Shown here: in pieces, positions 8,788 through 24,433 of the stretch
How positions within the stretch are numbered: position 1 is the stretch's first letter
How the letters are laid out: each line of letters opens with the position of its first letter
Assembly (NCBI GenBank): GCA_947346365.1
Contig: CANAAV010000005.1
Coordinates: 29,177 to 93,176, forward strand
Length of the DNA: 64,000 nt
Source of the DNA: an uncultured Flavonifractor sp.
GTDB lineage: Bacteria > Bacillota > Clostridia > Oscillospirales > Oscillospiraceae
Direction of reading: 5' to 3'
Notes under the pieces: model-generated
Seen by the model: only the letters and a program-made list of their open reading frames with translations
What the model was told of the DNA's origin: nothing
Database searches by the model: none
Translations under genes and position numbers: made by a program

Positions 8788-8851
8788 TCAAACAGCAATG
8801 GGCCCCCGCTCAAAAAGACGGGGGTCCATTTTAAACGGAGGAGGGCGGCTT

Positions 8852-9805
8852 ATGAGTCAGACTGTCCGGGGGCGCTTCGCCCCCAGCCCCAGCGGGCGGA
8901 TGCACCTGGGGAATCTGTTTTCCGCTCTGCTGGCCTGGCTGTCGGTCCGGTCGGCAGGCGGCATCATGGTCCTGCGCATAGAAGACCTGGACCCAGACCG
9001 CTGCCGGGAGGAGTACGCCGTGCAGCTGGCAGACGACCTGCGCTGGCTGGGGCTGGACTGGGACGAGGGCTATCAGGCCGGGGGACCCCACGCTCCCTAC
9101 CGGCAGAGCCAGCGCACCGCGTCCTATGCCGCCGCTTTCCACACCCTACAGGAGCGCGGGCTGATTTACCCCTGTTTCTGCACACGGGCAGAACGGCTTG
9201 CCGCCAGCGCCCCCCACCTGGGCCAGGGGCAGGGAGCCTACGGGGGAAAATGCCGCAGCCTGACCCCCCGGCAGCGGGAGGAGCTGTCTGCCTGCCGCCA
9301 CCCGTCTTGGCGGCTCCAGGTCCCGGATCAGACGGCAGCCTTTCAGGACGGCTTGCAGGGGGCTTACGCGGAAAATCTCCTGCGCGGCTGCGGGGACTTT
9401 ATCCTGCGCCGGTCCGACGGCGTGTACGCCTATCAGCTGGCGGTTGTGTGCGACGATGCGGACATGGAGATTACTCAGGTGGTCCGGGGGCGGGACCTGC
9501 TCTCCTCCACGCCCCGGCAGCTGTATTTATACCAGCTGTTAGGGCGGAAAGCCCCTCAGTTTTGTCATGTGCCCCTGCTGCTCTCCGAGGACGGCCGGCG
9601 GCTCTCCAAACGGGACGGCGATCTGGACATGGGCGCCCTGCGGGAACGTTGTACACCCCAGGCGCTGCTGGGCCGTCTGGCCTATCTGGCAGGCTTGCTG
9701 CCTCTGCCGGAACCTGTATCCGCAGCTGAACTCATCCCCCTGTTCTCTTGGGAACAGGTGCGCAAAGAGGATGTCACCCTTTCCGACACTTCCGATGCTT
9801 TTTAG
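8852..9805 (+). CDS. gluQ: glutamyl-Q tRNA(Asp) synthetase (truncated GluRS paralog)
   Basis: 317 aa from ATG 8852 (GGAGGAGGG RBS); RFAPSPSGRMHLGN HIGH region and LSKRDG KMSKS-like motif; lacks anticodon-binding domain. Confidence 0.8.
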   Translation: MSQTVRGRFAPSPSGRMHLGNLFSALLAWLSVRSAGGIMVLRIEDLDPDRCREEYAVQLADDLRWLGLDWDEGYQAGGPHAPYRQSQRTASYAAAFHTLQERGLIYPCFCTRAERLAASAPHLGQGQGAYGGKCRSLTPRQREELSACRHPSWRLQVPDQTAAFQDGLQGAYAENLLRGCGDFILRRSDGVYAYQLAVVCDDADMEITQVVRGRDLLSSTPRQLYLYQLLGRKAPQFCHVPLLLSEDGRRLSKRDGDLDMGALRERCTPQALLGRLAYLAGLLPLPEPVSAAELIPLFSWEQVRKEDVTLSDTSDAF

Positions 9806-10007
9806 GGCGGCCGGCCCATCCCACGGACTTGAGCGTTCAACCCCCGGCCGGGGGCTGCTGGAGATAATCATGCCGGCCGTGGGCCGCAGGCCCCTTTTTC
9901 ACAGTCTGGAGTATGCCGCTGTAGCCATAACCAGCGCCGTCTCTGACGCTCTTTTTGAGCAGATACCCACTCTGCCGCTGCGGCCGTGAAGAGGGCGCAG
10001 CAAAATT

Positions 10008-10055
10008 ATAAAAAAATCCCTCCACCAGTTCTCACAGGTGGAGGGATTTTTTTAT
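10008..10055. terminator. bidirectional intrinsic terminator between gluQ and the MFS gene
   Basis: AAAAAAATCCCTCCACC..GGTGGAGGGATTTTTTT perfect hairpin flanked by A and T runs. Confidence 0.7.
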
Positions 10056-11272
10056 GTGCGTGTACAGCCGCGCACGGCCGGCAGCGTCATTCCCAGCACG
10101 CCGCAGAGGATCGTCACCCCTCCGGAGAGCAGAAACCACACGGTCAGCCCGGCCCGTTCCGCCAGCAAGGCCGTAGCCGCCAGTCCCAGCGGGGAGGCCA
10201 GCGTCATGATCGCACCGGACAGTCCCAGCACCCGGCCCAGATATTCCGGCGCCACCTTTTCCTGGATCAGCGCCATAAAAACCGAGTTGAAAAACGGGCA
10301 CGTCAGCCCCATCACCAGGGACATCCCGGCAAACCACCAAAATCCTGAGGGCGGCAGCATTCCGGTGATTACCAACGCGCCGCCCATCGCAAAGACGGCG
10401 CTCATCATGGTTAAAATTTTGTCTTTTCCGCCACCCCATAACCCCAAAACCACAGAGCCCGCCAGCATGCCGAGAGAAAATGCCGTCTCTACCAGCGCCG
10501 CGGCGCCGGTATCCCGGCCAAAATACTGCATACTCATCAAAGGGAACAGGGCTGACACGGGCATAAACGCCACCGAAAACAGTGCGCAGATTAAGCACAG
10601 CTCCCACAGCCACCGGTAAGAGCGCAGTACGGCAAAGCCCTCCTTCGTGTCCTGCCACAGCCGCAGCTTCTGCCCCTGACCGTTCACCCGCAGGGCGGGC
10701 AGCCGGGCCAGCAGCAGTCCTCCGGTGGCGAAAACCGCGCCCAACGTATCCATCAAGAGCATCCAGTGCAGAGGCAGCGCCGCATACAGCGCCGCCGCCA
10801 GTGCGGGAGACAGCAGCATAGATACCGTCTGAATCCCTTGGCTCCATCCGGCGCATTTGCCCAGGGCCTCCGCTGGAGCAATCAGCGGCGTCACCGCCTG
10901 TAGGCAGGGGGAGTGGAACGCGCCGCCCACACTGCGCAGGGTGACCACCGCCAAAATGGGTCCTAATCCTAAGCGGCCCTGCAGGGCCAGCAGAGACAGC
11001 CCCAGAGAGAGCAGGCCGATGGATAGATCTGAAACCACCATAATCACCCGCCGGTCAAAGCGGTCGGCAAAGGCACCCGTAAACATACTCAGCACACCCT
11101 GGGGCAGCATCGCCACCAAGGTAATCAGGGAAAGCACCGTTGCCGACCCGGTAAGGTCCGTTACATACCAAATTAGGGCATATTGGGATATCATGCTGGT
11201 GAAGATAGACAGGGCCTGCCCTGTCCAAAGGGCGGCAAATTTCCGTTTCCAATGGGGAATCATGCGCATCAC
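10052..11272 (-). CDS. MFS transporter
   Basis: 406 aa; 12 predicted TM helices; MFS motif G(x)xADRxDRR (GAFADRFDRR). Confidence 0.85.
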   Translation of the reverse strand: MMRMIPHWKRKFAALWTGQALSIFTSMISQYALIWYVTDLTGSATVLSLITLVAMLPQGVLSMFTGAFADRFDRRVIMVVSDLSIGLLSLGLSLLALQGRLGLGPILAVVTLRSVGGAFHSPCLQAVTPLIAPAEALGKCAGWSQGIQTVSMLLSPALAAALYAALPLHWMLLMDTLGAVFATGGLLLARLPALRVNGQGQKLRLWQDTKEGFAVLRSYRWLWELCLICALFSVAFMPVSALFPLMSMQYFGRDTGAAALVETAFSLGMLAGSVVLGLWGGGKDKILTMMSAVFAMGGALVITGMLPPSGFWWFAGMSLVMGLTCPFFNSVFMALIQEKVAPEYLGRVLGLSGAIMTLASPLGLAATALLAERAGLTVWFLLSGGVTILCGVLGMTLPAVRGCTRT

Positions 11273-11368: not shown

Positions 11369-11959
11369 TTACCCCGCGCAGTACGTCTCTTCCTCTTTTA
11401 CCAGCTTCTCCAGCTCCTCCCAGGTCAGCGCCATGCACTCAACCTCTTCCCAGGTCTGAAAGCGCTTTTCCATTAGTTCCCACGTGATATACCAGTATAC
11501 ATATAAGATGTTCAAATGGCATGGCAGGATATCTTCTATGATGGCGCGCATTTCCTCAAAGCGCTCTGGAATCCCCGGCACATCAGGAAAACGCACCTCC
11601 ACATGTCCGGGCTGCCCAGTTTCACTGGCCACGGCGTTCAGGCCGCAGCCTTTCAGATTGCTGTTGACAGCCTCCAAAGTAAAGCTGTCTCCCCCAATCC
11701 GCAGCAGCGCCGCCAATGCCTCTCTCCGCCGCTGCAGCGTATCCGCCACCGGTTTTTGCGCCAGCAGGCGTTCTATCGCGTCCAGTCCCGGTCCTTGGGC
11801 CGTAGAAACCAGCATCTCCCGTTCCAGCGCCTCCAGCCAGCCTCCGCAGCCGTCCAGCGCTGCCCCCTCGGCGGCCAGCTCCGCGCCGTTGTAGGAATTT
11901 TCCAGCCGGTAGACCCGCAGAGGGCGCAGCAGGTCTTTTAAATACTGTTCGTATCCCAT
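11369..11959 (-). CDS. XkdU-like phage tail protein (DUF2313/YmfQ family)
   Basis: 196 aa; immediately downstream of the baseplate J gene as xkdU is in PBSX; ATGA start/stop overlap. Confidence 0.6.
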   Translation of the reverse strand: MGYEQYLKDLLRPLRVYRLENSYNGAELAAEGAALDGCGGWLEALEREMLVSTAQGPGLDAIERLLAQKPVADTLQRRREALAALLRIGGDSFTLEAVNSNLKGCGLNAVASETGQPGHVEVRFPDVPGIPERFEEMRAIIEDILPCHLNILYVYWYITWELMEKRFQTWEEVECMALTWEELEKLVKEEETYCAG

Positions 11960-13011
11960 CAGGCCGTCTCCGTTACCGACAGCCGCTCCAGCCAGGGCAG
12001 CTCAGACCTGTCCACCGTTATGTCAGCCGCGGGCGCACGGAAAGCATAGTTCTCCACTCCATCTACGCTGTAGACCAGCCCGCCCAGCTTGGCCCGCAGT
12101 ATGTCCTGCCCCAGCAGCTTCCCGTCAAACCACCCCCGCAGGCGCTCCTCTACCCCGCGCAGCACCGCCGCCTTGTCCGCTCCCTTTCTGGGCGTAACAG
12201 AGACCTCCACGTTGACCGGCTTTATCTCGGGCGCCTTCACCTGTACGTCTACGGCAATCTCCCTGCGCGCGCGAAAGTACTCCTTCAGCTCCTCCAGCAG
12301 CGCATTCTCCGGCAGTCCGGCGGCCGTGGATACCACCACGTCCACCGTTCCCACGCCCCGGGGCCGCGGAATCACCACGGCCGCCGCCACCTCCGAAAAG
12401 GACATCGCCCCCTGCTGGTAAAAAGCGGCGTTGGCCCCGTTGGGCATCCGCTGAAAGGTCTCCAGTACCCGTACTCGCAGGGCCTCATCGTCCTCCCGGT
12501 CCGCTCCGCCGGAAAACGCCTCCGGATTACTGCACCGGCTGACGCCGATCGGAGCCACCGCCATGGCCCGTATGGAGCCCGCCGCCGCATTGCCCGCCGC
12601 TCCCGGCGTTACGGCACGCGCCCGTACCTCTGCGCTTGTCTCCTCCGCGCCCAAAACAGCGTCTTCCTCCGTTTCAAACCGCACCTGTCCCGCCGTCAGG
12701 CATACCGTTCCCGCCGGAATGGTCAAATCGGCCGCCGCCGTGCTGTCCCGCTCAAACCGGAGTACTCCCCGCGCGGCCACTGCCTCCCGCCGTTCCAGCC
12801 CCCGCAACTGGGCGTGGCGGTCCAAAAACTCCCCCTGGGCAGTCTGGGGAAAGCATTGCCTGCCCACCCAGTCGGCCTGTACATACAGCGCATAAATCTG
12901 CGCCGCCACCGCATACAGCCGCACCGCCATGTCCCCGTCCCCGGCCAGATTCATTCCGGTCTCCCGCCGAAAAACCTCTGCCATCTCCTGATAGATTTTC
13001 TCCACCGTCAT
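11959..13011 (-). CDS. baseplate J-like protein (XkdT-like)
   Basis: 350 aa; gpJ/Baseplate_J family features and position. Confidence 0.75.
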   Translation of the reverse strand: MTVEKIYQEMAEVFRRETGMNLAGDGDMAVRLYAVAAQIYALYVQADWVGRQCFPQTAQGEFLDRHAQLRGLERREAVAARGVLRFERDSTAAADLTIPAGTVCLTAGQVRFETEEDAVLGAEETSAEVRARAVTPGAAGNAAAGSIRAMAVAPIGVSRCSNPEAFSGGADREDDEALRVRVLETFQRMPNGANAAFYQQGAMSFSEVAAAVVIPRPRGVGTVDVVVSTAAGLPENALLEELKEYFRARREIAVDVQVKAPEIKPVNVEVSVTPRKGADKAAVLRGVEERLRGWFDGKLLGQDILRAKLGGLVYSVDGVENYAFRAPAADITVDRSELPWLERLSVTETA

Positions 13012-13404
13012 CTACCGCACCTCCGCCGTCACACGCAGCGTCTCGCCCCGCCAGAGCAGGTCCACTTTCAGACAGCCGTCCTCCCCCAGCTCTACCTGCT
13101 CCACCTCCAGCTCCGTCTCTCCCGCCAGGGCTTCCGCTACGTATTGCCGGGCCAGTCCCGTCCGCCGGGAGGGCGGCTGGCCGAAGAGCAGGTAGAGCCT
13201 GCTGCCCAGCTGGGGCAGCGGTGGGAACGCGCCGCACTGTATGCTCAGCTTCCATTGCACCCGCTGCAGTATCTCCTCGCTCTCCCCGCTGCGTACAAAG
13301 CCTCCTCGCCCGTCGCTCAGATAATCTCCATCTTGTACCTTCAGCTCCACGCCTATCCCTCCTGTACCAGGACGGGCTTGCCGTTGACCAGCACGTCCCC
13401 CCAC
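13012..13404 (-). CDS. XkdS-like baseplate protein (DUF2634, gpW-like)
   Basis: about 120-130 aa, position between XkdR-like and baseplate J; start may lie downstream of 13404 because the ORF overlaps the upstream gene. Confidence 0.5.
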   Translation of the reverse strand: MGGRAGQRQARPGTGGIGVELKVQDGDYLSDGRGGFVRSGESEEILQRVQWKLSIQCGAFPPLPQLGSRLYLLFGQPPSRRTGLARQYVAEALAGETELEVEQVELGEDGCLKVDLLWRGETLRVTAEVR

Positions 13405-13724
13405 ATGGAGATCGTCCCCGTGTTGCTCAGAAAAATAGACGCTCCGCCGCTGTAAATATAAATTTCGCCGGGCGCCAAGGCCAGATTACCGCCCTCCCGC
13501 ACCCCTGCCGCACAGGGCTGTTCTTTGTCGGCGCCCGCCTTAACCACCAAGATCTCCTGCCCCGCTCTGGGCCGCCAGGCATATCCGCCAGGTCCGAATA
13601 CCGGCATATCCCTCCGCTCGGCGCCCAGCACCGCACCCGCCGGGTCTCCGGGCAGCGTCACCCTCCCCACCTGGGCGGTCTCTTCCTGCCGCCGCTGTGT
13701 CTCGTTCCGTCTTGAAAGCCACAC
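13353..13724 (-). CDS. XkdR-like small baseplate/spike protein
   Basis: 123 aa; C-terminal GDVLVNGKPV resembling gpV/XkdR small beta proteins; synteny. Confidence 0.45.
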   Translation of the reverse strand: MWLSRRNETQRRQEETAQVGRVTLPGDPAGAVLGAERRDMPVFGPGGYAWRPRAGQEILVVKAGADKEQPCAAGVREGGNLALAPGEIYIYSGGASIFLSNTGTISMWGDVLVNGKPVLVQEG

Positions 13725-13760
13725 TGTGTCGATACTCCCCCTTGTCCATTTTCCGTCCGG

Positions 13761-14711
13761 CTACGGCAGCGTCCCCCTCTCGCCCAGGGTCAAAACCGTG
13801 TATGTCCCGCGGCTGTCCAGGCCGGAGGCGCTCTCCACCACCTGCCAGATCCCGCCGCACACATTCTGCTTCAGCGCCAGCTCCACCATATCGCCGGGCC
13901 ACGCCCGAAAAGCCCCCGGCAGCGTCACTTCCAGCCGCCGCAGCTCTTCCGCTGAGCGCCGGAGCTGGTACTCTCCAGAATAACGCATAGCCTGATAGCT
14001 GCTGCGCCCCGGCATGGTCAGCACCCTCCTGCACCGGCCGCCCCGGCCGGCAAAGGGCTCGTTGCGCACCTTCTGCACCTTGCCGCTGCTCCTCTCCCGC
14101 ACCAAAATTTCAGACAGCACCCCGTACCGCCGCTCCCGCAGGGTGAAAGCGGTCACCGCCGTGCTGCCGTCCAGGCGAATGCGCTCTCCCTCCTTCCATG
14201 GGGCGGCTGTCAGCCGCCCCATGCGGTCAAATCGGGGGGTCACACCCCCATAATAACGGCAGAATTCATAGAGCACCTGCCACTCGCTGCTTCCCGTAGC
14301 CACGGAAAACCCCGGCACAGAGGGCAGTTCCGCCAGTTCGGCCGTCTCAATTCCATAGGGGGCCACATGGTCCCGCAAGATATCCGCAAAACTGGCTATC
14401 TGGTAATCGCAGCCCAAAGCCTCATTGTCCAGCAGCAGGGCCGCCATGCCCCGTCCGGAGACGCTCAGCCGTCCGCCGCCGCCGTCCCAGCCGCATTCGA
14501 TCTCGTCCACTACGCCGGTGAAAACCCGTTCTCCGTTCTCATCCGCCGTAAAGCGAACCGCTTCCGCCAGTATTCCCGCCTCTTCCGGCTTCCAGAGGCA
14601 GGTCAAAAAAAAACTGTCGCAGGGAACGCCGCAGGCATATTCCATTTTCCAGCCTGTCATATCGGGCAGCGCGATGCGCCGCCCATCCCAGCACTCCAGC
14701 GTTCCTCTCAT
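13761..14711 (-). CDS. XkdQ-like baseplate hub / late control gene D-like protein
   Basis: 316 aa; follows the LysM protein with overlapping stop/start; size and position as xkdQ. Confidence 0.6.
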   Translation of the reverse strand: MRGTLECWDGRRIALPDMTGWKMEYACGVPCDSFFLTCLWKPEEAGILAEAVRFTADENGERVFTGVVDEIECGWDGGGGRLSVSGRGMAALLLDNEALGCDYQIASFADILRDHVAPYGIETAELAELPSVPGFSVATGSSEWQVLYEFCRYYGGVTPRFDRMGRLTAAPWKEGERIRLDGSTAVTAFTLRERRYGVLSEILVRERSSGKVQKVRNEPFAGRGGRCRRVLTMPGRSSYQAMRYSGEYQLRRSAEELRRLEVTLPGAFRAWPGDMVELALKQNVCGGIWQVVESASGLDSRGTYTVLTLGERGTLP

Positions 14712-15274
14712 CGCACGCGCACCTTCTCCCCCGTCAAAACGAAATTGGGATTTTTGATCTGGGGGTTAAGGGCAATCACCGCGCTCAGGCTGACCCCATA
14801 AGCCTGGGCAATTCCCCAAAGGGTCTCTCCCTGGCGCACGGTGTGCCAAAGGCCGCCTCCCCAAGCGGCGGAGGCAGCACCCTGCGCGTTCTTTTCCTCC
14901 ACCCGTATCCCTGTGTTGTGCCCGTCAAACCCCTCCCAGAAGGCAAAGGCATAGCGCACATAATCCGCTCTGGGCTCCTGCCTCAGAGAGAGTTCTACAA
15001 AGTAGGCGTCGGACGTCTGCCAAACCGGATGGATCAGCAGTCCCGGCCCGTCCTCGTAAAACACGCTGGCCAGCTGCTTAAACTGCTGATAGGCCTCCAG
15101 CCCTACAAACTCTCCCTCGCCCCTCATGATCCGTTTCGCGGGCCCCATGTCCTGGAGAAAATACCGTCCAAAGGGGACCTTCTGCTCTCCCATAACCCGT
15201 TCATATTCAATGGTATAGGTCCTGGGATTGTGCGGCCATACAAACCCTTTATACCGCATTGCCGCCAGCTTCAC
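14708..15274 (-). CDS. XkdP-like tail protein with C-terminal LysM domain
   Basis: 188 aa; C-terminal LysM motif (GETLWGIAQAYGVSLSAVIALNPQIKNPNFVLTGEKVRV). Confidence 0.75.
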   Translation of the reverse strand: MKLAAMRYKGFVWPHNPRTYTIEYERVMGEQKVPFGRYFLQDMGPAKRIMRGEGEFVGLEAYQQFKQLASVFYEDGPGLLIHPVWQTSDAYFVELSLRQEPRADYVRYAFAFWEGFDGHNTGIRVEEKNAQGAASAAWGGGLWHTVRQGETLWGIAQAYGVSLSAVIALNPQIKNPNFVLTGEKVRVR

Positions 15275-15295
15275 CGCCGGTGCACCTCCTCGCTT

Positions 15296-15958
15296 TTACA
15301 AAAGGGAAAAGCCCCCGTCATACCGTCTGGCGTCCCGTTCCAGCACTCGGTCCAGCTCCGCCGGCGAAAGGACTTCTTTGTAAACAGCGCCCTGCCGCAC
15401 CGCCGCAGCGGCCGCAGCGCTGCGCGGCTGTATCCGGTGCTCCAGCGCTGCCGCGCCGGCGCCCAGCCGGCGGTACAACCAGCCAGCCCCTGCCCTCTGC
15501 CTCAAGGGCGCCGCCCCTTCGCCCCCTGCTGACTGTTCCCGCATTGTACCCTCCTGCATATCCGGGGACTCCGGCGCAGTCCTCTGCGCTTCTAGGGCAG
15601 CTTGGCTCCTTTCCGCTCCCCGCTCTGGCCGCGCCGGTTCTGCGCCGCCCCGCTCCGCCCTTTTCTCTTTCCTGAGTTCCAGATCAATCGGACTGCGCGC
15701 CGCCCACCGCTTCAGCGCCCCGCCTGCGCCGCGGTATCCCTGCGCCCCATCCTGTTCCCGCAGCTCCGGCGCTGCGCGCCCCCACGCCGCCTCCCCGCCA
15801 CGGAAATCCGACCCGTCCGCCGTCTGTCCCGGTGCCTGCTCTCCCACCGGTTTTCTTCGAAGCAGCGCCATCCCTCCGGCTTCCAGCGCCACCCCCAGCT
15901 CATCCCGCTCCTGTTCCCGCTCTTGCTCCTCCAGCAGCAGCGCCAGATAGTCCGTCAC
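15296..15958 (-). CDS. putative very short tape measure-like protein (Ala/Arg/Glu/Gly-rich)
   Basis: 220 aa, low-complexity predicted helical; sits in the tape-measure position between chaperone GT and XkdP; ATGA overlap with upstream stop. Confidence 0.4.
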   Translation of the reverse strand: MTDYLALLLEEQEREQERDELGVALEAGGMALLRRKPVGEQAPGQTADGSDFRGGEAAWGRAAPELREQDGAQGYRGAGGALKRWAARSPIDLELRKEKRAERGGAEPARPERGAERSQAALEAQRTAPESPDMQEGTMREQSAGGEGAAPLRQRAGAGWLYRRLGAGAAALEHRIQPRSAAAAAAVRQGAVYKEVLSPAELDRVLERDARRYDGGFSLL

Positions 15959-16254
15959 TGTGCTTCCCCCCGCTCCAGCTGCCGGAACCGCTGTAGGTCA
16001 AAGCAGGGGTTCTCCCCCGCATCCTCCGCCGCGGCACCGCCGCACACCGGGCAGCGCGCCTGCTGCGCCTCCGCCCGGCAGGACGGACACAAATGAGACA
16101 GCTCTTCCTCCTGGTCCAGTATCAGATTCAGCGCGCACCACAGATAGTCTCTGGGCTTCATTTTCTGGGCCCGCTCCTCTGTGGGCAACGCCCCGAATGT
16201 TTTAAGCACATGCCAGCGCAGGCGTTCATCCGGCATGTGCTCTAGGCTTTTTTT
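15955..16254 (-). CDS. -1 frameshift extension of tail assembly chaperone (GT product), with C-terminal CxxC..CxxC zinc ribbon
   Basis: -1 frame open from the A7 site (16248-16254) to the stop at 15955-15957; fused product about 217 aa; CPSCRAEAQQARCPVCGG motif. Confidence 0.55.
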   Translation of the reverse strand, partial: KKSLEHMPDERLRWHVLKTFGALPTEERAQKMKPRDYLWCALNLILDQEEELSHLCPSCRAEAQQARCPVCGGAAAEDAGENPCFDLQRFRQLERGEAQ

Positions 16255-16607
16255 AGCCCCTGGCACCGTTCCTCTCCATCCTCCGGCGCCGGGTCCTCCG
16301 CCCGGTCGAACTGCGCCCACTGCCGGGCCAGCGCACCGATTTCTCGGGCCGTCATCCGCTCCAACGCTTCCGCCCCGGTTGAAAAGACAGCCTTTCCGTC
16401 TCGCACTAAGGCCCTCGCCAGCAGGCAGGCGTTGGCGCACAGGGCCTGCTCTTCCTCCCTTTGGGCAAGCTGCGCCGCCTCCCGCCGGGCCTGTAAAATT
16501 TCCCTTGCGCTCAGCAGCCGCAGGACGCTCCCATCTTCCAGCTGCATCTGCTCCCGCCCGTATAAGAAACCATGCTCCTCCATTTTCTTCCTCCCAGCGC
16601 GGCTCAC
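16242..16607 (-). CDS. tail assembly chaperone (XkdN-like, G product)
   Basis: 121 aa; between tube and tape-measure position; ends CTA AAA AAA GCC TAG with an A7 slippery run. Confidence 0.65.
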   Translation of the reverse strand: MSRAGRKKMEEHGFLYGREQMQLEDGSVLRLLSAREILQARREAAQLAQREEEQALCANACLLARALVRDGKAVFSTGAEALERMTAREIGALARQWAQFDRAEDPAPEDGEERCQGLKKA

Positions 16608-16993
16608 ACCGCCGTCTCAATCCGCTTCGTCGCCGTCACCGTAATCTTTTCCAGCACCATGTTCCCTAACGTCCCATTTTCACCGATGCTGCTCCACTGG
16701 CAGCCGGAGTAGATAATACGCCGGTCCGGCTTGCAGATCACTAGGCTGAAATCCTCCAGCTCATGAAAATTCAATCCATCCCGAATCGCCTCGTCCGTGG
16801 CGTAAAGCCGGGTCAGCTCAATCACATGGCTGCGCGGCCCCGCAATGGTCGCCACCGGCTCCTCCTCGCCAAAGGCCTCTATCACCTGGCTGCTGCGGGT
16901 GGTGCGCACGCTGTAGCTCTGCACCACGGCCACTTTCTTTCCCTCTGCCTCCAAATAAATGTCGCTACTGGTGGGAAATCCCGCAATTTTCAT
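16604..16993 (-). CDS. phage tail tube protein (XkdM-like)
   Basis: 129 aa; XkdM/DUF2001-like; immediately after sheath gene. Confidence 0.75.
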   Translation of the reverse strand: MKIAGFPTSSDIYLEAEGKKVAVVQSYSVRTTRSSQVIEAFGEEEPVATIAGPRSHVIELTRLYATDEAIRDGLNFHELEDFSLVICKPDRRIIYSGCQWSSIGENGTLGNMVLEKITVTATKRIETAV

Positions 16994-17009
16994 CTGTCAC
17001 TCCTCGCTC

Positions 17010-18038
17010 TCAAACGGTAATATGGGCGCTGATCCAAATCTGGTTGAGCCCATGGGCCACCGTAAAGGAAAACTCCACCAGGCACACGGTGGGCTCTTCC
17101 TCGTCCGCCCGGACATTGACTCCGCTGTAGCCGGTAATAATCTCCCGCGCCAGCTTATTTTCCAGCTCCATAATCACCTGGGAGCGGATCGCCCCCCGGC
17201 TCTGCTCGGTATTTTTCGCTCTGCGGAATCTACTGCGCAGGGCGTTGCGCACGGTGGGAATCACATCGTCCACTATGCGTATGGTGGTCAGCTCCCGCCA
17301 TGTGCTGTCCGATGCATCTCCGCTTTTGGTGCGGGTGGTAACGCCGCGCACCACGCTGACCTGGCCCAGCGTATATTCCAGGGGGGTCACCCCTCCCTGA
17401 ATCAACGTATCCAGTTCCGTGTCGTCAAAGCTGCGCTCTATTCCGTCCAGCCCCTGCAATACAGCGCCTCCCAGGGGAACAGCAGGGTCCCGCTCCGCGG
17501 CGATAACTCCCGCCACCGCCGCGGCTGCGGCGCCGTCCTTCCCCGCCGGCGCCGCCAGCACCACCCGTTCGCTGTTCAGGGCCTGCGCCCTTGCGGTAAG
17601 CTGGCTCACGTCCTCCTCCCCGCCGCCCTGTACTACCGCAATCCTCTCCCGTCTGGCCTCAGACGCGCTGTGCACGCTCTCCCGCAGCTTTTGCTGCACG
17701 CTTAGCTGTACGCTGTCGCACACCACAATGGAGATATCCTCTTCTCCCTGCAGCAGCGCAAACGCCGTATCATAGCCCTCCTCGGCCGCCACCGGAACAG
17801 CCTTCACCTGAGCCGCCCCGTTGAGGAAAAGCACTCTCGCCAGAGCGCTCAGGCCGTCTTCCGCCCCGAACTGATTTACCGCGTCCTCATAGCGGCTCAA
17901 AACATACAGCCGCCCCGCCGTGTCTTTGCCGCCCTTGGCCGCCAGGCCCACCACTCCGCCGCTCCCGCTGCCGCTGATTACTGCCGAGGCGTCATAGCTG
18001 GAATAGACCCCCGGCCTTTCATGCCTTGCCGTGCTCAA
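17010..18038 (-). CDS. phage tail sheath protein (XkdK-like)
   Basis: 342 aa; N-terminal ERPGVY motif typical of contractile sheath proteins. Confidence 0.8.
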   Translation of the reverse strand: MSTARHERPGVYSSYDASAVISGSGSGGVVGLAAKGGKDTAGRLYVLSRYEDAVNQFGAEDGLSALARVLFLNGAAQVKAVPVAAEEGYDTAFALLQGEEDISIVVCDSVQLSVQQKLRESVHSASEARRERIAVVQGGGEEDVSQLTARAQALNSERVVLAAPAGKDGAAAAAVAGVIAAERDPAVPLGGAVLQGLDGIERSFDDTELDTLIQGGVTPLEYTLGQVSVVRGVTTRTKSGDASDSTWRELTTIRIVDDVIPTVRNALRSRFRRAKNTEQSRGAIRSQVIMELENKLAREIITGYSGVNVRADEEEPTVCLVEFSFTVAHGLNQIWISAHITV

Positions 18039-18592
18039 ATCCTGCCCTCTCCTTTTACGATAAAGTCTAAAAATGCGCCGCCCTCATCCGCCACAGCGTA
18101 AAGATAGCCGTCGCAGATGGCCTGCGCCGGGCAGTGGAACAGTCCCATCCCCTGGTCGTATTCCACCTCTGTACAGGATATTTCCCGTATCTTCAATCCC
18201 GCCGGTCCCGCCTGGTGAAAGGCCTGGACCATCCGGTCAAACACCGCCCGGATGCCCTCCGCCCCGCACCCTTTAGGCGCGTACAGGTCCAGTCCGAACC
18301 TCAGTTGAATCTTCCGCCCGTACAGCTCTTCCCAGCGGCCGGCCTCCTCATTGTACCGCTCCCCCAGGTAGTCCTGGAATCCCCCCGGTCCCCCCTGACA
18401 GGCCCGCAGGGATACCGCCGCCGCCGCGCCCTCCCGGCGCGCTCTGGCTCCGTCTGGCCAGGCACATACCGCGTCAACTCCATGCTGCCGTAAAAATTCC
18501 GCCATCCGTTCCCTCGCCCGGTCCAGCGCCGCCGCTCTATCCTCCCTCCGGGGGGTGGGGCCCTGCAGCCCCGCCTTATATGCCTCCGGCAT
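18035..18592 (-). CDS. phage tail completion / XkdJ-like protein
   Basis: 185 aa; position between head-tail joining genes and sheath; translationally coupled. Confidence 0.4.
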   Translation of the reverse strand: MPEAYKAGLQGPTPRREDRAAALDRARERMAEFLRQHGVDAVCAWPDGARARREGAAAAVSLRACQGGPGGFQDYLGERYNEEAGRWEELYGRKIQLRFGLDLYAPKGCGAEGIRAVFDRMVQAFHQAGPAGLKIREISCTEVEYDQGMGLFHCPAQAICDGYLYAVADEGGAFLDFIVKGEGRI

Positions 18593-18920
18593 CTGGATCC
18601 CTCCGTTTCAAAATCGCCCGCCAGTGGTTTACCTGCCCGCCCAAATAGACCGGGCAGGCATTTACCACCTCGAATTTCTCTCCCTGCCACAGGATATATC
18701 CCGCTTCTATCCCCTCCAGGGAGAGTTGCGGATGCCCCAGGTACCGCCACCGCCCCTGGGGCGCTCCGCCCAGGGGCGTAGGCAGCGGATCCTGTCTCTC
18801 CTGCCTAAGCGGCTGTACAAATGCCTTGCCGCTTTCACCGCACTCCTCTTCTCCGCGGCAGACCTTCACCCGCTCCCCGTAACGCTCCAGCACGGCGGCA
18901 AACGCTTCTCCGGGGCTCAT
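18576..18920 (-). CDS. phage head-tail joining protein (XkdI-like)
   Basis: about 114 aa from ATG at comp(18918..18920) overlapping upstream stop (ATGA). Confidence 0.4.
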   Translation of the reverse strand: MSPGEAFAAVLERYGERVKVCRGEEECGESGKAFVQPLRQERQDPLPTPLGGAPQGRWRYLGHPQLSLEGIEAGYILWQGEKFEVVNACPVYLGGQVNHWRAILKRRDPDAGGI

Positions 18921-19279
18921 CCTGGCGTCCTCCGGAAGGCGAAGCCCTCGTCTTGGAGATAGGGCGCCATAATCCTCCGGGCCTGGCGCTGCAGAGCCGC
19001 CTGCCGGGCCGGAGCGCCTGCGCACCCTTCCATCTGAACAGACACATCTCCCGCGGTAAACCGCTCCACCCTGCTCTCCTGCCCCGCGGCCAATCCGGCC
19101 AGGGCCAGCCAGGCCCCCGCCAGGAGAAAAGCGTCTCCGCAGTCACGGGGAGATACCCCGTCCCGCAGCCTGCCACGCAGCTCCGCCTCCGCCCCGCGGC
19201 AGAGCACGCGCAGTCTCTCGTCCTCCTCCGGCACTTGACCCAGCTTTTTCGCCAATGCGAAAATCTCTTCCTCAATCAC
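18917..19279 (-). CDS. phage head-tail connector (gp6-like) protein
   Basis: 120 aa, directly after major capsid gene with ATGA overlap. Confidence 0.45.
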   Translation of the reverse strand: MIEEEIFALAKKLGQVPEEDERLRVLCRGAEAELRGRLRDGVSPRDCGDAFLLAGAWLALAGLAAGQESRVERFTAGDVSVQMEGCAGAPARQAALQRQARRIMAPYLQDEGFAFRRTPG

Positions 19280-20304
19280 AGGGACAGCACCTTGGCAGCG
19301 TCCGCAAAGAGCTTGGCAAAGCCGCTGACGCTGGTAATCGCGGCCCGCTCCAGCTGCCGGTCAATGAGCTTGTCGTATTCCACCAGCACATCGGACCCCT
19401 GCACCATCTCCAGCGCATAGCGCTTGTCCAGGCCGACCACCGTGCCGCTTTCCAGCGCGGAAGTCCGCAGCAGCGTCGCCCCCAGGGGTGTAGCCAGCTT
19501 TCCGGTGCCCTGGAAATTGAGCCCTGTCAGGGGATTCTGGAACTCGGGGAGCTTGAGCATCTGAAGCATCACATCCCCGGATACCAGCAGCGTGTTCATC
19601 TCATAGGGGTCAAACTTGGCCCAAAAGTCCACCAAGTCCTCATATTTCAGGGCCTTTTTCTGGCCGCCCGTCCCTGCGGAAGCCTGGAACACCTCTGCGG
19701 GGTTGCCGTTGCCGTCTCCGTGTAAAAGCACGTCAATGGCGTCCTCGAGATGCATCCGGTTGATGTGCGCGCCAATCTGCCGCAGCGTCACTGAAAACAG
19801 GTCCAGCTTTTGGTAGCGGATCGCCTCGTAAGAGGCCACCAGCATCCGCCCCCGCTTGTGCAGGCGCACCAGGTTTTCCTGGGTCTTGATCTTGGTCTGG
19901 GGGATGGCCGCCCCCTCTTCCACATAGCGCAGCTGCTTTTGTTCCTCGTCGGGTACGGAGGTGATCGAACGGTAGTCCGCGCCGTTAAACTTGGTCACCG
20001 TGGCGGCAATGTGGGGAAGCAGATTGGCCTCCTCCATGCCCTGCCGCACAGACCGGGCCACATATTCCGGAAAAAGCACGGCGGACTGCGTGGTGTGGAA
20101 AAACTTTTCCACCACGTCGGACCCTGCGCCCTTCACTTTGATGTCAAACCGCTTTAGCTGCCGCTGATAGGCGTCCATCCCCTCCAGGGCGGTGCCCTTA
20201 TAGGCCCCGGAGGGGTCCTCCCGTTCCAGCGTCTGCGTAAAGGAGCGCCCTGCTTCGCTGTACATTCCCTTTTCCAGCTTCAAATTATCGTAACGGTAAG
20301 CCAT
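19276..20304 (-). CDS. major capsid protein
   Basis: 342 aa; size and position after scaffold/protease-like gene. Confidence 0.65.
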   Translation of the reverse strand: MAYRYDNLKLEKGMYSEAGRSFTQTLEREDPSGAYKGTALEGMDAYQRQLKRFDIKVKGAGSDVVEKFFHTTQSAVLFPEYVARSVRQGMEEANLLPHIAATVTKFNGADYRSITSVPDEEQKQLRYVEEGAAIPQTKIKTQENLVRLHKRGRMLVASYEAIRYQKLDLFSVTLRQIGAHINRMHLEDAIDVLLHGDGNGNPAEVFQASAGTGGQKKALKYEDLVDFWAKFDPYEMNTLLVSGDVMLQMLKLPEFQNPLTGLNFQGTGKLATPLGATLLRTSALESGTVVGLDKRYALEMVQGSDVLVEYDKLIDRQLERAAITSVSGFAKLFADAAKVLSL

Positions 20305-20319
20305 GCTATCTCCTCCTCC

Positions 20320-20658
20320 TTACAGCCGGATCACAGCGCCGGCGCTGCCGGCGCTGACCACTAAAAACTCGTCCCCCGCGCTCTCGTCTTTCTTTACGCC
20401 GCCTGCGCCGTCGGCGCTCAGCTTGACCCAACCGGCGTCCACCTCACCGGAGATCCTCACCGTAGCCAGGCCGCTCAGCTGCACGCTGGCCCGCCCATCT
20501 CCGGTGTGTAGCGCCACGCCGCAAAACCGCTCTCCAGCCCCACAGGCGCCTACCGTCCCATCGCCTGTGATTTTGACCACCTGCCCGTCCAGCGCCCCGT
20601 CTCCACACTCGAACGTAGCCGCCACCTCGCCAATTCCCTCAAATGAAATCTTTTTCAT
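20320..20658 (-). CDS. small Gly-rich head protein (possible decoration protein)
   Basis: about 112 aa from ATG at comp(20656..20658) with AAGGAG RBS; Gly/Asp-rich beta-type sequence between scaffold and capsid genes. Confidence 0.4.
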   Translation of the reverse strand: MKKISFEGIGEVAATFECGDGALDGQVVKITGDGTVGACGAGERFCGVALHTGDGRASVQLSGLATVRISGEVDAGWVKLSADGAGGVKKDESAGDEFLVVSAGSAGAVIRL

Positions 20659-20761
20659 GCTCCGCTGCTCCTTTCCTATCTCAAGCTGTTCTATCTGCAA
20701 ACACGCTGCCCCCGCATGTCCTTCCTCCCGCCCCCATATTCTGGGGTACCCCCCGTTCCGC

Positions 20762-21640
20762 TCAGATCAAAAACGCGCCGTCTTTCCCGCCGCCCTCCCC
20801 CGCCGGACCGGCGTACTCCAGTTGGGTCTTCACGGGAAAGCGCTCACTCAGCCTTCGCTCATAGTTCTTTTTCAGCGCCAGCAGCTCCGTTTCCCCCAGC
20901 TTTTCGGCAATGCTCTTGCAGACGTCTCTCCCCAGCTCCGGCTCGGCCAGACCGCCCAGGCGCACAACCTCCCAGCGCAGGCCCTCCAGATATTTCCGCC
21001 CCAGGGCCGCCTCCTGCTCCAGCCGCTCCCGCTGCTGCAGGCCTTTTAATACCCCGGCCTTGGGCTGGGCCGGCACCGCTACAAAGGACCACTCATAGGC
21101 GTCGGTGGCCCCTATCAGCTCGCTCCAGCACAGCTTTCCTCCATATTCCTGCCCTTTTACGTGGGCGCAGCCGCGCGCCTCTTCTCCACAGACAGAGCAC
21201 ACAGTCCGCGCCACTGCGCAGCTGATGGAGACCTCCTTTTTGATCCCGCCCTCAATCTCTTCAATCAGCTCCCGGTTTGCCTGCGTGCGCAGCATGTAGG
21301 CGTATCCCTTCAAATAACAGTAAGGGTCTCCCGCTCTGGTCAGCAGCCCCTCTTCCCGCACCAGCTCCGTGCGGTAGAGCCGGGCGGCCTGCCCCCGGGC
21401 GCTCCACTGGTGGTCGAACATGCCGCTCTTCCCCACAAACAGCCGGGACAGCTCCTCCAGCGTCTCCACCGGAAAGCGCTCATAGTCCCGGTCCACCTCG
21501 TTGTCGCACAGCCTTACGCAGAAGGTGTATACCTCTTCCGCCTGTAGTGTCCTTCGGCTCAGGGCGTTGATTTGGCTCAGCACCTGCGCATCCACCGCCG
21601 TGCCCATGCCCCCGGCGGCCGCTTCCTTGACAATTTTCAT
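20762..21640 (-). CDS. XkdF-like prohead protease/scaffold protein
   Basis: about 293 aa from ATG at comp(21638..21640), AAGGAGGGG RBS; N-terminal enzymatic-like half with C..C..C....C cluster and coiled-coil C-terminal half. Confidence 0.5.
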   Translation of the reverse strand: MKIVKEAAAGGMGTAVDAQVLSQINALSRRTLQAEEVYTFCVRLCDNEVDRDYERFPVETLEELSRLFVGKSGMFDHQWSARGQAARLYRTELVREEGLLTRAGDPYCYLKGYAYMLRTQANRELIEEIEGGIKKEVSISCAVARTVCSVCGEEARGCAHVKGQEYGGKLCWSELIGATDAYEWSFVAVPAQPKAGVLKGLQQRERLEQEAALGRKYLEGLRWEVVRLGGLAEPELGRDVCKSIAEKLGETELLALKKNYERRLSERFPVKTQLEYAGPAGEGGGKDGAFLI

Positions 21641-21657
21641 GCTGCTCGCTCCCCTCC

Positions 21658-22818
21658 TTATTCTGCTCCCGCTTTTTGATTGTTCTCTCGCAGTGCTTTT
21701 GCCTGCTCCCGGTAGAGTTCCGCTCTGGCCTCCTCCACCAGGTCCTGCAAGTTCATGTCCTCCCACTCCACCTCCACCTGTCCGCTGTATCCATGCAGCC
21801 GCAGCCACAGCTCGCAGATGCGCTCCACCACGGGGGTCAGCCCCCGCCGTATGGCGGTAATCTCGCTGGTCATCATGTCGGCCTGCTGTGCGCTCATGCG
21901 TTCGGTAGAGGACCAGGACAGTCCCAGCAGGAAGGGTGGGATTCCTGTGCGGGCAACCAGCTGCTCCAAAATCTGCCGCACCGGCGTCTGGCTGTCCAGC
22001 ACCTGATTGTCCGCCCCGATAACTTTAATGTCCACGTCGCCTACGGCGACGAAATCCCGCACGCTGCCATCCTTTCCCGCCTGCATGGCGGCGGACCACT
22101 CCTGGGCAATCTGGCGGCTGCGCTCCTGGGCCCAAACGCCGTCCAGCTCGTCTCCGCCGGGCTTGTAGACCACGGCAAAGCGCACGTTCCCCATCCGTTC
22201 CCAGTTCATGCCTACCGCCTGATAAATTTTCAGCAGGATCTCGGTCAAAAACGGCATGGACCGCAGCAGGCTTACCCCATAGGGGTTGTCTGCCTCCGGC
22301 TGGAAGGGCGTAAACAACAGCAGCTCCTGCCAGGGCAGCTCTTTCAGGGCCGCGCCCTGCCTGGTGCACAGCGTAAACTGTAAGGGCGAATCTCCCTCTT
22401 TGATCTCCACATCCGCCGGATTGCCGCACAGTACGGCGGCGATCTCCTTTTTGGACCAGTCCAGCACAATCTCACCCACGCCGCGCCCACAGGTGAGCAT
22501 GGAGTCCAAATACTGGTCCAAAAAGGACTGGAGCCCCCGCTGTCCCCGTCCGGTGTTCACCTGGCGCAGGAAGCGGTCAAGTTCTTTCTGACCTCCCCCG
22601 TCCGCACAGCGGACCTGCACGCCGCCCGCCAGCCGGATCAGCTTCCAAATTGCCGCGTCCACCACCGGCACCGCCTCCCGGATGCTCCGATACAGCTGAA
22701 TCTCGCCGTTTTTCAGCGGCACATATCCGTCCAGTAGCCCAAAGGGATGCCGCTGTCCGCTCCGAATCTGCACGGCGCTCCCCGCCGCCGGGGCCTTCCT
22801 TTTGTTCCAAAATCCCAC
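21658..22818 (-). CDS. phage portal protein
   Basis: 386 aa; follows terminase large subunit; SPP1/PBSX-type portal features. Confidence 0.75.
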   Translation of the reverse strand: MGFWNKRKAPAAGSAVQIRSGQRHPFGLLDGYVPLKNGEIQLYRSIREAVPVVDAAIWKLIRLAGGVQVRCADGGGQKELDRFLRQVNTGRGQRGLQSFLDQYLDSMLTCGRGVGEIVLDWSKKEIAAVLCGNPADVEIKEGDSPLQFTLCTRQGAALKELPWQELLLFTPFQPEADNPYGVSLLRSMPFLTEILLKIYQAVGMNWERMGNVRFAVVYKPGGDELDGVWAQERSRQIAQEWSAAMQAGKDGSVRDFVAVGDVDIKVIGADNQVLDSQTPVRQILEQLVARTGIPPFLLGLSWSSTERMSAQQADMMTSEITAIRRGLTPVVERICELWLRLHGYSGQVEVEWEDMNLQDLVEEARAELYREQAKALRENNQKAGAE

Positions 22819-22833
22819 GTCTCTCCCTCCTAT

Positions 22834-24090
22834 TTAAAAGCGCCGCCGTTCGGCCGTCGCCGCCGCCAGGGCTCCTCCCTGCCGCCCTGCCGCCACCGTG
22901 GCGGCAAAATAGCGGATGTCGTCCATCGCGTGATCGTGCGCCTTTTTCACCCGGTCCCCCACGGCCCGCTCGTCCCAGCAGTACTGGGAAAATTCCCGGA
23001 TTGCGTCCGTACATCCCTGGCAGATCACCAGCCTGCCCTGCCGCAGCAGCTCTGCGGTCGTCCGTATGCCGGAGATCACGTCGTTTTCTGCCCGCGCCAC
23101 CCGCCAGCCTCTGCGGCGCAGCGTCTCAATAAAGCTGGCGGCCGAGGGGTCCACCACTGCCAGCTCTATCCTCCGCCCCCCTGCCAGCCGCTCCAAATCC
23201 TGCGCGTATTCTCCGTCTGTCTTTTGCCGCCCGTGGATTTTGGAGTCATAATAGTACTCCTTGACCCGGTACCACACCCCGTCCCGCTTCCCCCACAGCC
23301 CAAAGGAGGCGGGATTCACCGTGCCGTAGTCGCAGGAGACGCACCACCGCTCCAACTCCCCCTCTGGCGGCGGGCGCACATAGCGCTCGTCGAAAAAGTC
23401 GTACACTCTCCCCTCGGCGGCTGTCCATTCCCCCAGCACAAACCGCCGGAAGAAAGCCCCGCTGAAATTTCTCGCGTAGCGCTGAATCACCTCCGGCGGC
23501 AGCGCAGGATTGTCCTGCATGAAAAAGTGCAGGTACAGCGCCCCCCGTTCCTCGCTTTTCTGAATCCATTCCCGGTAAAACCAGTGCTCCGGCCCTTCCG
23601 GGTTGCAGGAAAACCACAACTTGCTCCCCTTTACCGAACACCGGGCGCAGGTCTGCTCCACAAAGGACCTGGGCATCAGCGCCACCTCGTCCAGCAGCGC
23701 CCCCGCCAGCGTAATCCCCTGAATCAGCGCGGCGCTCCCCTCATCCTTTCCTCCAAAAAGATAAAACGTGTTTTCCCGTCCTCCAAAGCGCACATCCAGC
23801 GTATTTTGGGCCGTCCGCTCCCTGCACGTAAATCCCAGCTCCCGCAGCGCCGGCAGCAGTCCGTACAGCAGATTGCGCCGCAGCGCCCCTATGGTCTTTC
23901 CGCACAGGGCAAAGCGCTGCGCGTGAAACCTGCGCATAGCCCAGCAGAAAAAGGAAAGACCGAGGCACAGGGTCTTCCCGCTGCGCACCGCCCCGTCACA
24001 GATTACGGCCTCCCGTCCAGAGGTCTCCGCCCCATCGCACCACCAGGTCAGCGCCAGCCGCTGTTTTTCTGAAAAGGCCTCAAACTCCAT
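22834..24090 (-). CDS. phage terminase large subunit (PBSX XtmB family)
   Basis: 418 aa; Walker A GAVRSGKT; terminase_6-type ATPase and nuclease halves. Confidence 0.85.
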   Translation of the reverse strand: MEFEAFSEKQRLALTWWCDGAETSGREAVICDGAVRSGKTLCLGLSFFCWAMRRFHAQRFALCGKTIGALRRNLLYGLLPALRELGFTCRERTAQNTLDVRFGGRENTFYLFGGKDEGSAALIQGITLAGALLDEVALMPRSFVEQTCARCSVKGSKLWFSCNPEGPEHWFYREWIQKSEERGALYLHFFMQDNPALPPEVIQRYARNFSGAFFRRFVLGEWTAAEGRVYDFFDERYVRPPPEGELERWCVSCDYGTVNPASFGLWGKRDGVWYRVKEYYYDSKIHGRQKTDGEYAQDLERLAGGRRIELAVVDPSAASFIETLRRRGWRVARAENDVISGIRTTAELLRQGRLVICQGCTDAIREFSQYCWDERAVGDRVKKAHDHAMDDIRYFAATVAAGRQGGALAAATAERRRF

Positions 24091-24433
24091 CCGTCCGCCC
24101 GTCTCCTGCCTTTCCCTCCAGAGCCCGGAAGAACTGCTCGGCCCGCTCGGCCTCCCCCTCTCCGCTCAGCGCAGCCAGCTTTTCCAGCGCCGCGATCCGG
24201 TCAACCAGCTTGATCTCCACCCCCCCGCTGGCGTTGCGCCTGAACTCCGCCAGCGCCCCCAGCTCCAGAGCGTCGATTCCCTTCATCTGCTCCGTATCCA
24301 GTCCGCCGTCCAAAAACGCCAGCTTTACCGCGTCGTTGACCCGGCAGTCTGCAATCCGCCGAATTCTGCACAGGGCCTGCCTGCGTCCATTTCTGCCCTT
24401 GGAATCCCCGTTCATCCTGTTCTCCCCCCTCAT
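24080..24433 (-). CDS. phage terminase small subunit (Terminase_2 / XtmA-like)
   Basis: 117 aa; KLVDRIAALEKL motif characteristic of the Terminase_2 family; overlaps start of large subunit. Confidence 0.6.
   Translation of the reverse strand: MRGENRMNGDSKGRNGRRQALCRIRRIADCRVNDAVKLAFLDGGLDTEQMKGIDALELGALAEFRRNASGGVEIKLVDRIAALEKLAALSGEGEAERAEQFFRALEGKAGDGRTDGV

Follow-up and report, generated by a model that had tools for sequence, protein, structure and literature searches.

What becomes of a ribosome that reaches a run of seven adenines (A7) two codons before the end of its gene? This question is raised by a putative tail assembly chaperone gene on the minus strand of a 64,000-nucleotide (nt) stretch of DNA from an uncultured Flavonifractor sp. 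(assembly GCA_947346365.1, contig CANAAV010000005.1, positions 29,177 to 93,176), which as a whole is called the window here. An original prediction, made from the letters of the DNA, had proposed that some ribosomes slip back by one nucleotide on this run, giving a short protein, G, and a longer fusion, GT, in the manner of tailed phages. Overall, our analysis makes it very probable that this gene, which sits in a contractile-tail phage-like cluster, uses a programmed -1 ribosomal frameshift. The proposal of a G/GT pair is upheld by a heptamer that is conserved together with its codon phase, a hairpin with compensatory changes, the rarity of start codons for T, a predicted chaperone fold and a parallel in Bacillus phage G. 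What the analysis shows is the signal, how well it is conserved and a predicted fold like that of a chaperone; from these we infer the slipping itself, its efficiency and the roles of G and GT.

The probable slip site and its conservation

In the 0-frame, G is encoded by an open reading frame (ORF) at 16242..16583 on the minus strand, which starts with ATG 16583, ends with the TAG stop at 16244-16242 and gives 113 amino acids (aa). The lengths first proposed, 121 aa for G and about 217 aa for the fusion, hold for an alternative start at GTG 16607. The ATG is the likelier start, because a Shine-Dalgarno-like sequence, GGGAGGAAG (16587..16595, minus strand), precedes it and because gene callers on independent contigs picked it; the sequence is read directly and would function in initiation. 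From ATG 16583 the conceptual GT fusion has 209 aa.

The 3' end of G reads CAG GGG CTA AAA AAA GCC TAG, just as had been noted. The run at 16248..16254 (minus strand) forms the slippery heptamer A_AAA_AAA. It shares the phase of the 0-frame codons CTA AAA AAA, lies two codons before the stop and permits perfect re-pairing of two tRNA-Lys in the -1 frame. From the re-read base 16248 the -1 frame continues as AGC CTA GAG CAC ATG... for 97 sense codons, rather than the 98 first counted, and ends at the expected stop, a TGA at 15957-15955. This extension, T (15955..16248, minus strand), would form the C-terminal part of the 209-aa fusion, and we propose that it is expressed solely in that form. 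The -1 frame had been described as open from exactly the slip site. It is in fact open from 16620, all across G (listed ORF 15955..16620, 221 aa). Such a long open frame is unremarkable because the DNA has a G+C content of about 63%, and its translation 5' of the A-run is noise rich in Gly, Arg and Ala. The stop of T overlaps the start of the next gene as GTGA (GTG 15958-15956) and not as the ATGA first described; an NTGA overlap of this kind is present in the frameshift loci whose T stop was correctly read.

Runs of seven adenines are enriched in the window (15 observed against 4.9 expected), so a lone A7 proves little and the comparative data have to carry the weight. We fetched 80 loci from the GTDB species-representative set and ran tblastn on them with the fusion as query. 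Of these, 47 leave the G frame for the -1 frame at query residues ~111-113 (drawn from loci L033-L080), and the remaining 33 match the fusion in one frame (L001-L032 and L042). All 47 frameshift-type loci carry an in-phase A_AAA_AAA (nnA AAA AAA Gnn), with a run of exactly seven. They include the isolates Flavonifractor plautii ATCC 29863, Pseudoflavonifractor capillosus ATCC 29799, Lawsonibacter hominis, Intestinimonas massiliensis and Evtepia gabavorous. Together with L081, a copy of the window's own element, they make up the 48 frameshift loci analysed below. In 43 of the 48, the 0-frame extends 29 codons beyond the heptamer. In the element of the window and in L034 it comes to an end one codon past the heptamer, where TGG has become TAG, and the 0-frame tail past this point is evidently dispensable.

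The viral contigs of IMG/VR gave the same picture, with 69 of 80 relatives showing the -1 switch. In every one of these 69 two-frame loci the slip site is an in-phase A_AAA_AAA, in some cases within nine A's (A9) followed by C, or an in-phase A_AAA_AAC. The A9 subgroup (for example L120, L126, L130, L137 and L148) reads GTA AAA AAA AAC, which holds two overlapping in-phase heptamers, and differs in its downstream sequence. Nine relatives use A_AAA_AAC, with six A's only; a subgroup of this kind (for example L134, L135, L140 and L143) has CTA AAA AAC at the same position.

The in-frame relatives occupy the same syntenic slot, and T aligns colinearly with the C-terminal half of the single-ORF homologues, with many residues invariant. 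At the junction they carry no in-phase heptamer. They have variable codons there (CTG AAG GAG GCT and similar) and lack the 5' arm of the stem described below. One of them, L001, reads CTG AAA AAA AGC, with the 5' arm gone, and looks like a decayed version of the frameshift site. The G/GT arrangement is thus conserved in the 47 species loci and the 69 viral loci without being universal, as the other loci of both sets, among them the 33 species loci, encode an in-frame fusion.

The downstream hairpin and the proposed mechanism

Of the stem-loop or pseudoknot considered as a possible stimulator, the former was found. A probable stimulatory hairpin lies at 16204..16242 (minus strand), with its 5' arm GAGCACAUGCC at 16242-16232, a 17-nt loop at 16231-16215 and its 3' arm GGCAUGUGCUU at 16214-16204. 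It is separated from the heptamer by the 5-nt spacer GCCUA (16243..16247, minus strand; columns 20-24 of alignment A2), which includes the first two bases of the G stop. The predicted stability in the window is -22 kcal/mol. An 11-bp stem is possible at this distance in all 48 aligned sequences (GAGCACrYGCC, 17-nt loop, GGCrYGUGCUC), and RNAalifold independently predicted the same 11 pairs as our own structure. Pairing is found in 99.6% of the alignment cells, and sliding the partner strand lowers this value to 18-59%. Two pairs show compensatory changes, from A-U to G-C in 14 sequences and from C-G to U-A in 2. The window itself has the compensated AUG/CAU variant, so that ATG 16236 lies within the stem.

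Further measures point in the same direction. At third codon positions of the T frame, identity is 0.92-0.96 within the stem arms against 0.58 downstream. The mean stem stability is -23.8 kcal/mol in the frameshift loci against -15.2 kcal/mol in the homologous segment of the in-frame relatives, in a set of sequences that are phylogenetically non-independent. Single-sequence folding of a 65-nt segment gave z = -3.06 against shuffles, a kind of statistic that related sequences inflate. The compensatory pairs and the missing 5' arm in the in-frame relatives are the stronger arguments for the hairpin.

Other stimulators were looked for as well. No conserved pseudoknot was found within +75 nt, nor an upstream region pairing with the loop or with downstream sequence. 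Rfam gave no match at E <= 1 between 15500 and 17000 on either strand. A conserved internal Shine-Dalgarno sequence of the dnaX type was not found, the 12 nt 5' of the heptamer being variable in alignment A2; a GGAGAGGAG-like stretch lies ~19-27 nt 5' of the heptamer, beyond the usual Shine-Dalgarno spacing. An upstream Shine-Dalgarno stimulator is optional for bacterial -1 frameshift signals.

We propose the following course of events. Most ribosomes on G would read CTA AAA AAA GCC and end at TAG, giving the 113-aa product. A fraction of them would pause with two tRNA-Lys on AAA AAA, as the 11-bp hairpin 5 nt downstream resists unwinding. Both tRNAs would then re-pair one base back on A_AAA_AAA, and translation would go on for 97 further codons in the -1 frame, yielding the 209-aa GT, whose T part carries a zinc-ribbon-like motif with four cysteines (Cys4). 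Judging from synteny, predicted fold and the analogy with lambda, G and GT would jointly chaperone the ~200-aa protein of the next gene during tail assembly, and T would be the part that binds it.

The locus resembles lambda G/GT in its arrangement. In both systems a pair of overlapping ORFs directly precedes the gene at the tape-measure position, and the T stop abuts the next gene. Ribosomes that terminate as usual give the short product in lambda, and would do so here; the long one is made by a -1 slip, proposed for our locus, on an X_XXY_YYZ heptamer close to where the first ORF ends. There are also differences. The slip heptamer of lambda is G_GGA_AAG and, to our knowledge, requires no downstream structure. 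By contrast, our locus has A_AAA_AAA, a strong conserved 3' hairpin, a Cys4 motif in T and a downstream protein of only ~200 aa, and many of its relatives fuse G and T. With regard to mechanism, the closest analogues are the signals of E. coli dnaX and of IS911/IS3-type insertion sequences (IS), in which an A-rich heptamer of lysine codons is followed within a few nucleotides by a stem-loop; A_AAA_AAA with a stem-loop has been proven in an IS cluster (PMC4066793). The dnaX signal differs in that its shifted product is the shorter one and in its internal Shine-Dalgarno sequence 10-14 nt upstream, which is not conserved here.

Frameshifting in G/GT genes is already known in tailed phages: for the conserved tail-chaperone frameshift and its experimental verification, the database record of phage Mu cites Xu, Hendrix and Duda 2004 (PMID 15469818). 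What we describe is an unannotated family from gut Oscillospiraceae. It is mildly new in three respects, namely a well-supported hairpin stimulator, a T that bears a zinc-ribbon-like motif, and the clear alternation of closely related elements between frameshift pairs and constitutive fusions.

Alternative explanations

The same two products could in principle arise during transcription. If RNA polymerase added one A at the A7 run, a minority of mRNAs with eight A's (A8) would encode GT in frame, and the product would be identical (LKK-SLEH...). That A-runs can cause polymerase slippage counts against a purely ribosomal event; homopolymeric A/T runs are recognised sites of such slippage, and E. 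coli genes avoid them on that account (PMC4066793). The A9 run in one subgroup of relatives also favours the idea. Nevertheless, the run is exactly seven in all 47 species loci, as it is in the window, and so below the ~9 for efficient slippage (A9 being a length at which the polymerase reportedly slips efficiently; Baranov et al. 2005). It is also locked to one codon phase, which counts against the polymerase because phase matters to ribosomes only. The use of A_AAA_AAC in nine relatives argues in the same direction. The conserved hairpin, finally, lies 3' of the run at a 5-nt spacing, where it can stall a ribosome, whereas the hairpins that reportedly stimulate polymerase slippage are located 5' of it, in the nascent RNA (Penno et al. 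2015). We consider it improbable that transcription is the source of GT; polymerase slippage may contribute a minor share, especially in the A9 subgroup, whose sites may be prone to it as well.

The next explanation takes T as a separate small gene, with its own start at GTG 16266 (103 aa) or ATG 16236 (93 aa), and the A7 run as incidental. Gene callers do call ORFs of 103 or 93 aa on identical contigs. In the window, the GTG has a Shine-Dalgarno-like motif and lies 12 nt before the heptamer, and the ATG lies 18 nt after the first base of the heptamer. This does not extend to the relatives. Between -45 and +42 nt of the site, the T frame of 38 of the 48 loci is devoid of start codons (ATG, GTG or TTG), a start with a Shine-Dalgarno-like motif occurs in just 4 of the 48, and two loci have a T frame that becomes open no more than 3-6 nt ahead of the heptamer. 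The ATG in the window is simply part of the AUG/CAU variant of the stem. Moreover, the same residues form the C-terminal half of one protein, colinear through the junction, in 33 species, and we found no promoter-like site or terminator between G and T. An independent T gene is accordingly very unlikely.

A third explanation, which the original prediction had itself raised, is that the A7 run is a sequencing or assembly error in the homopolymer, or a recent inactivating deletion in a one-ORF gene with A8. A protein search with the conceptual fusion returned 930 homologues, and the best 120 of them were all single proteins of 176-224 aa, the majority of which span 90-99% of the fusion. Ordinary one-ORF genes thus occur in the family too, and the copy in the window might have been a broken one. 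An in-frame A8 allele with an intact hairpin is indeed present in two F. plautii-like contigs, so run length either varies or was miscalled; its product, P0001, is colinear through the junction (e.g. GLKKSLEHAPYERLRW). Three homologues, P0003, P0009 and P0057, look locally frame-scrambled at the site. On the other hand, the exact 113-aa product of the window (ending in GLKKA) is indexed in 225 blocks of a public assembly collection, from unrelated samples. In the 24 contigs with this product that we read, which come from unrelated SRA runs and two NCBI metagenome-assembled genomes (MAGs), the gene order is identical. This recurrence in many independent assemblies effectively excludes a one-off homopolymer error. 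The A7 run is also fixed in 47 species representatives, isolates included, together with the co-conserved hairpin, and both G and T stay conserved as protein, as pseudogenes would not. An artefact or a pseudogene is thus scarcely credible.

As a separate observation on data quality, P0003, P0006, P0009 and P0057, all homologues near P0001, have short frame-scrambled or deleted stretches around the slip site; P0009, for example, runs ...KKAWSTRPMS... before it regains the frame. Either the assemblies or gene calls near the A-run seem to be error-prone, or compensating indels occur.

Mutational phase variation, in which a hypermutable run toggles between A7 and A8 and makes cells G-only or GT-only with no decoding event, would suit the nearly identical A7 and A8 alleles in assemblies (L064, which is F. 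plautii ATCC 29863, against L090 and L091) and the interleaving of types in the tree described next, and yet it is hardly believable, since A8 is rare (P0001 on 2 contigs against 225 blocks for the A7 product of the window), a mutational switch requires neither a phase-locked heptamer nor a hairpin at 5-nt spacing, and G-only cells could not supply the T domain that is kept in every relative.

A programmed ribosomal frameshift thus remains by far the preferred reading, and several observations weigh against it, besides the effect of relatedness on the shuffle statistics and the A8 allele. Both arms of the hairpin lie in conserved coding sequence (E-H-x-P and W-R/H-V-L), so that their conservation is partly at the protein level. 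A crude neighbour-joining tree of the fusion proteins interleaves the frameshift and in-frame types; it is too crude for counting gains and losses of the frameshift and serves as a hint only. At least a third of the sampled relatives encode the fused protein alone. This suggests that a separate G is not indispensable throughout this chaperone family, unlike in lambda. The assignment to the chaperones is also weak at the level of sequence families. Pfam Gp41_Mu matched G over its full length at E = 0.043, below threshold, and hhalign of our family profile against Mu gp41 gave E = 0.22, which is not significant. Finally, the 220-aa protein of the next gene is not recognisably a tape measure, as detailed below.

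The putative chaperone, its neighbours and the host cluster

Is G a tail assembly chaperone? Scans of G, T and the fusion against Pfam, PHROGs and NCBIfam gave sub-threshold hits only (Gp41_Mu and generic zinc ribbons), and a profile search of PDB sequences gave zinc-ribbon noise only (Nop10 and Spt4). In the phage GenBank collection there was no close relative; a faecal contig without annotation and a marginal match to Bacillus phage G were all that it returned. Structure prediction was more informative. An AlphaFold model built from the family alignment predicts a tail-assembly-chaperone fold for the G domain, with a predicted local distance difference test (pLDDT) score above 90 over residues ~11-90 and lower values in T. 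Foldseek against viral models returned gp182 and gp181 of Bacillus phage G and a 'phage tail assembly chaperone'. The HK97 chaperone (PDB 2ob9) and B. subtilis YqbN (PDB 3klu), from the skin element related to PBSX, were compared with the predicted model, and sequence searches alone found no similarity to either; HK97 is a siphovirus, unlike the contractile-tail cluster studied here.

Bacillus phage G offers a parallel. Its gp181/gp182 are annotated as a tail assembly chaperone, with a coding sequence joined across a frameshift, directly before the tape measure gp183. The slip site, GAA TTA AAA AAC TAG, has a Leu-Lys codon context like that of the window and lies about ten codons 5' of a shared RW-K-V motif; the extension reads K-K-L-A-S-D-T-Y-S-R-I-R-W-K-V-M-K there and K-K-S-L-E-H-M-P-D-E-R-L-R-W-H-V-L-K in the window. 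The shifted frame of Bacillus phage G seems to encode the motif seen in the window, about equally far from its slip site. The similarity of T to gp182 is marginal and covers part of T only (tblastn E = 5e-3 over residues 121-161; Foldseek E = 3.9e-4). Bacillus phage G also differs in its heptamer, A_AAA_AAC, in the size of gp182 (367 aa) and in being a jumbo phage of 498 kb whose tape measure is very long. Mu gp41 shares the slot, in the order sheath, tube, chaperone, tape-measure protein (TMP), DNA_circ_N protein, gp44 hub, ..., gp47 (J) and gp48, and differs in that the Mu record notes a verified -2 shift.

The T part carries the motif CPSCR-X7-CPVC at 16042..16089 (minus strand), at fusion residues C166, C169, C178 and C181, which agrees with the CPSC...CPVC motif first noted (CPSCR...CPVCG at 16089-16042). 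In alignment A1 the four cysteines (CPxCR...CPxCG) are invariant or nearly so. Zinc-ribbon models and the zinc ribbons of Nop10 and Spt4 matched T weakly, and AlphaFold2 confidence is low at the motif (pLDDT 53-70). The four cysteines may bind a metal. We know of no zinc ribbon, or role for such a motif, in the T domains of tail chaperones.

The next gene (15296..15958, minus strand), at the tape-measure position, encodes 220 aa. By position it would be the tape measure, as first proposed, and its start overlaps the T stop, but the protein matched no family, TMP families included. It is rich in Ala, Gly, Arg and Glu and poorly conserved, with matches at 15 of 87 related loci; in the relatives the slot holds a gene of similar size (~190-210 aa). 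A contractile tail measured out by this protein, if that is its role, would be unusually short.

On the other side of G lie a 129-aa gene (16604..16993, minus strand), which matches phrog_27038 (E = 8e-61), a PHROG family without assigned function, and a 342-aa tail sheath gene (17010..18038, minus strand; Pfam Phage_sheath_1 and Phage_sheath_1C; phrog_279, E = 2.7e-41). From its size and its position directly after the sheath gene, the 129-aa protein is a putative tail tube. According to Pfam and PHROG matches, the tail module runs from sheath, tube-position gene, G/GT and the 220-aa gene to a LysM/DNA_circ_N protein, a gp44-like hub, Baseplate_J and a Mu gp48-like protein, an order that fits a contractile tail module; its baseplate genes look as much Mu-like as PBSX-like. 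The module belongs to a head-tail cluster of ~13 kb on the minus strand (~11369-24433), in which a small ORF, the large terminase, portal and capsid precede the sheath, and which ends with the Mu gp48-like protein. One flank of the cluster holds a host MFS transporter, GltX and ArgRS, and the other ABC_trans_CmpB and SbcCD-like genes (flanks 7039-11272 and 24876-28752).

In the ~13-kb cluster we saw no integrase, repressor, replication, holin/endolysin or tail-fibre genes. Related clusters from other species (L173-L175) are of equal size, have other host flanks and contain no integrase, and the proviral predictions of relatives in IMG/VR bunch at 12.7-14 kb. The host element resembles a gene transfer agent (GTA) or a domesticated particle. 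It is possible, although we would not call it likely, that it represents a myovirus-like GTA or domesticated particle, a compact structure-only cluster spread over gut Oscillospiraceae, in which the G/GT frameshift acts as an evolvable dial of stoichiometry. Just as tentatively, lineages would have switched repeatedly between the frameshift signal (A7 or A9 with the hairpin) and a constitutive GT fusion, and A7 and A8 alleles may coexist within one species. GTA-like packaging of DNA has recently been described in gut Oscillospiraceae (PMC12946183), and nothing in our data ties that activity to the ~13-kb cluster.

The practical value of the signal lies mainly in annotation. Hundreds of Oscillospiraceae genomes currently list these genes as 'hypothetical protein', split them into two unrelated small ORFs or risk having them marked as frameshifted pseudogenes, and the conserved heptamer with its hairpin gives a precise rule for the joined product. 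The frameshift pair and the constitutive fusion, sometimes one A apart, also amount to a natural experiment on the need for the short G and for the G:GT ratio in tail assembly; as read from these genes, the alternation appears to question whether this chaperone family needs a separate G. The host element, in turn, has the look of a minimal cluster for particle building, and the gut anaerobes that carry it are abundant.

Two minor observations concern the surrounding DNA. The plus-strand ORFs at 15602-16096, 15960-16205 and 16181-16669 were rejected as high-GC antisense noise, as GC skew and gene order indicate coding on the minus strand. The gp44-like hub gene (13761-14711) has an A9 on the plus strand (T9 on the minus strand) at 14605-14613, ~100 nt into the gene. 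It is intact in the window (316 aa); in a near-identical MAG contig (L082, GCA_948591275.1) it is called as two ORFs (184 and 144 aa), with the break apparently elsewhere than at the A9.

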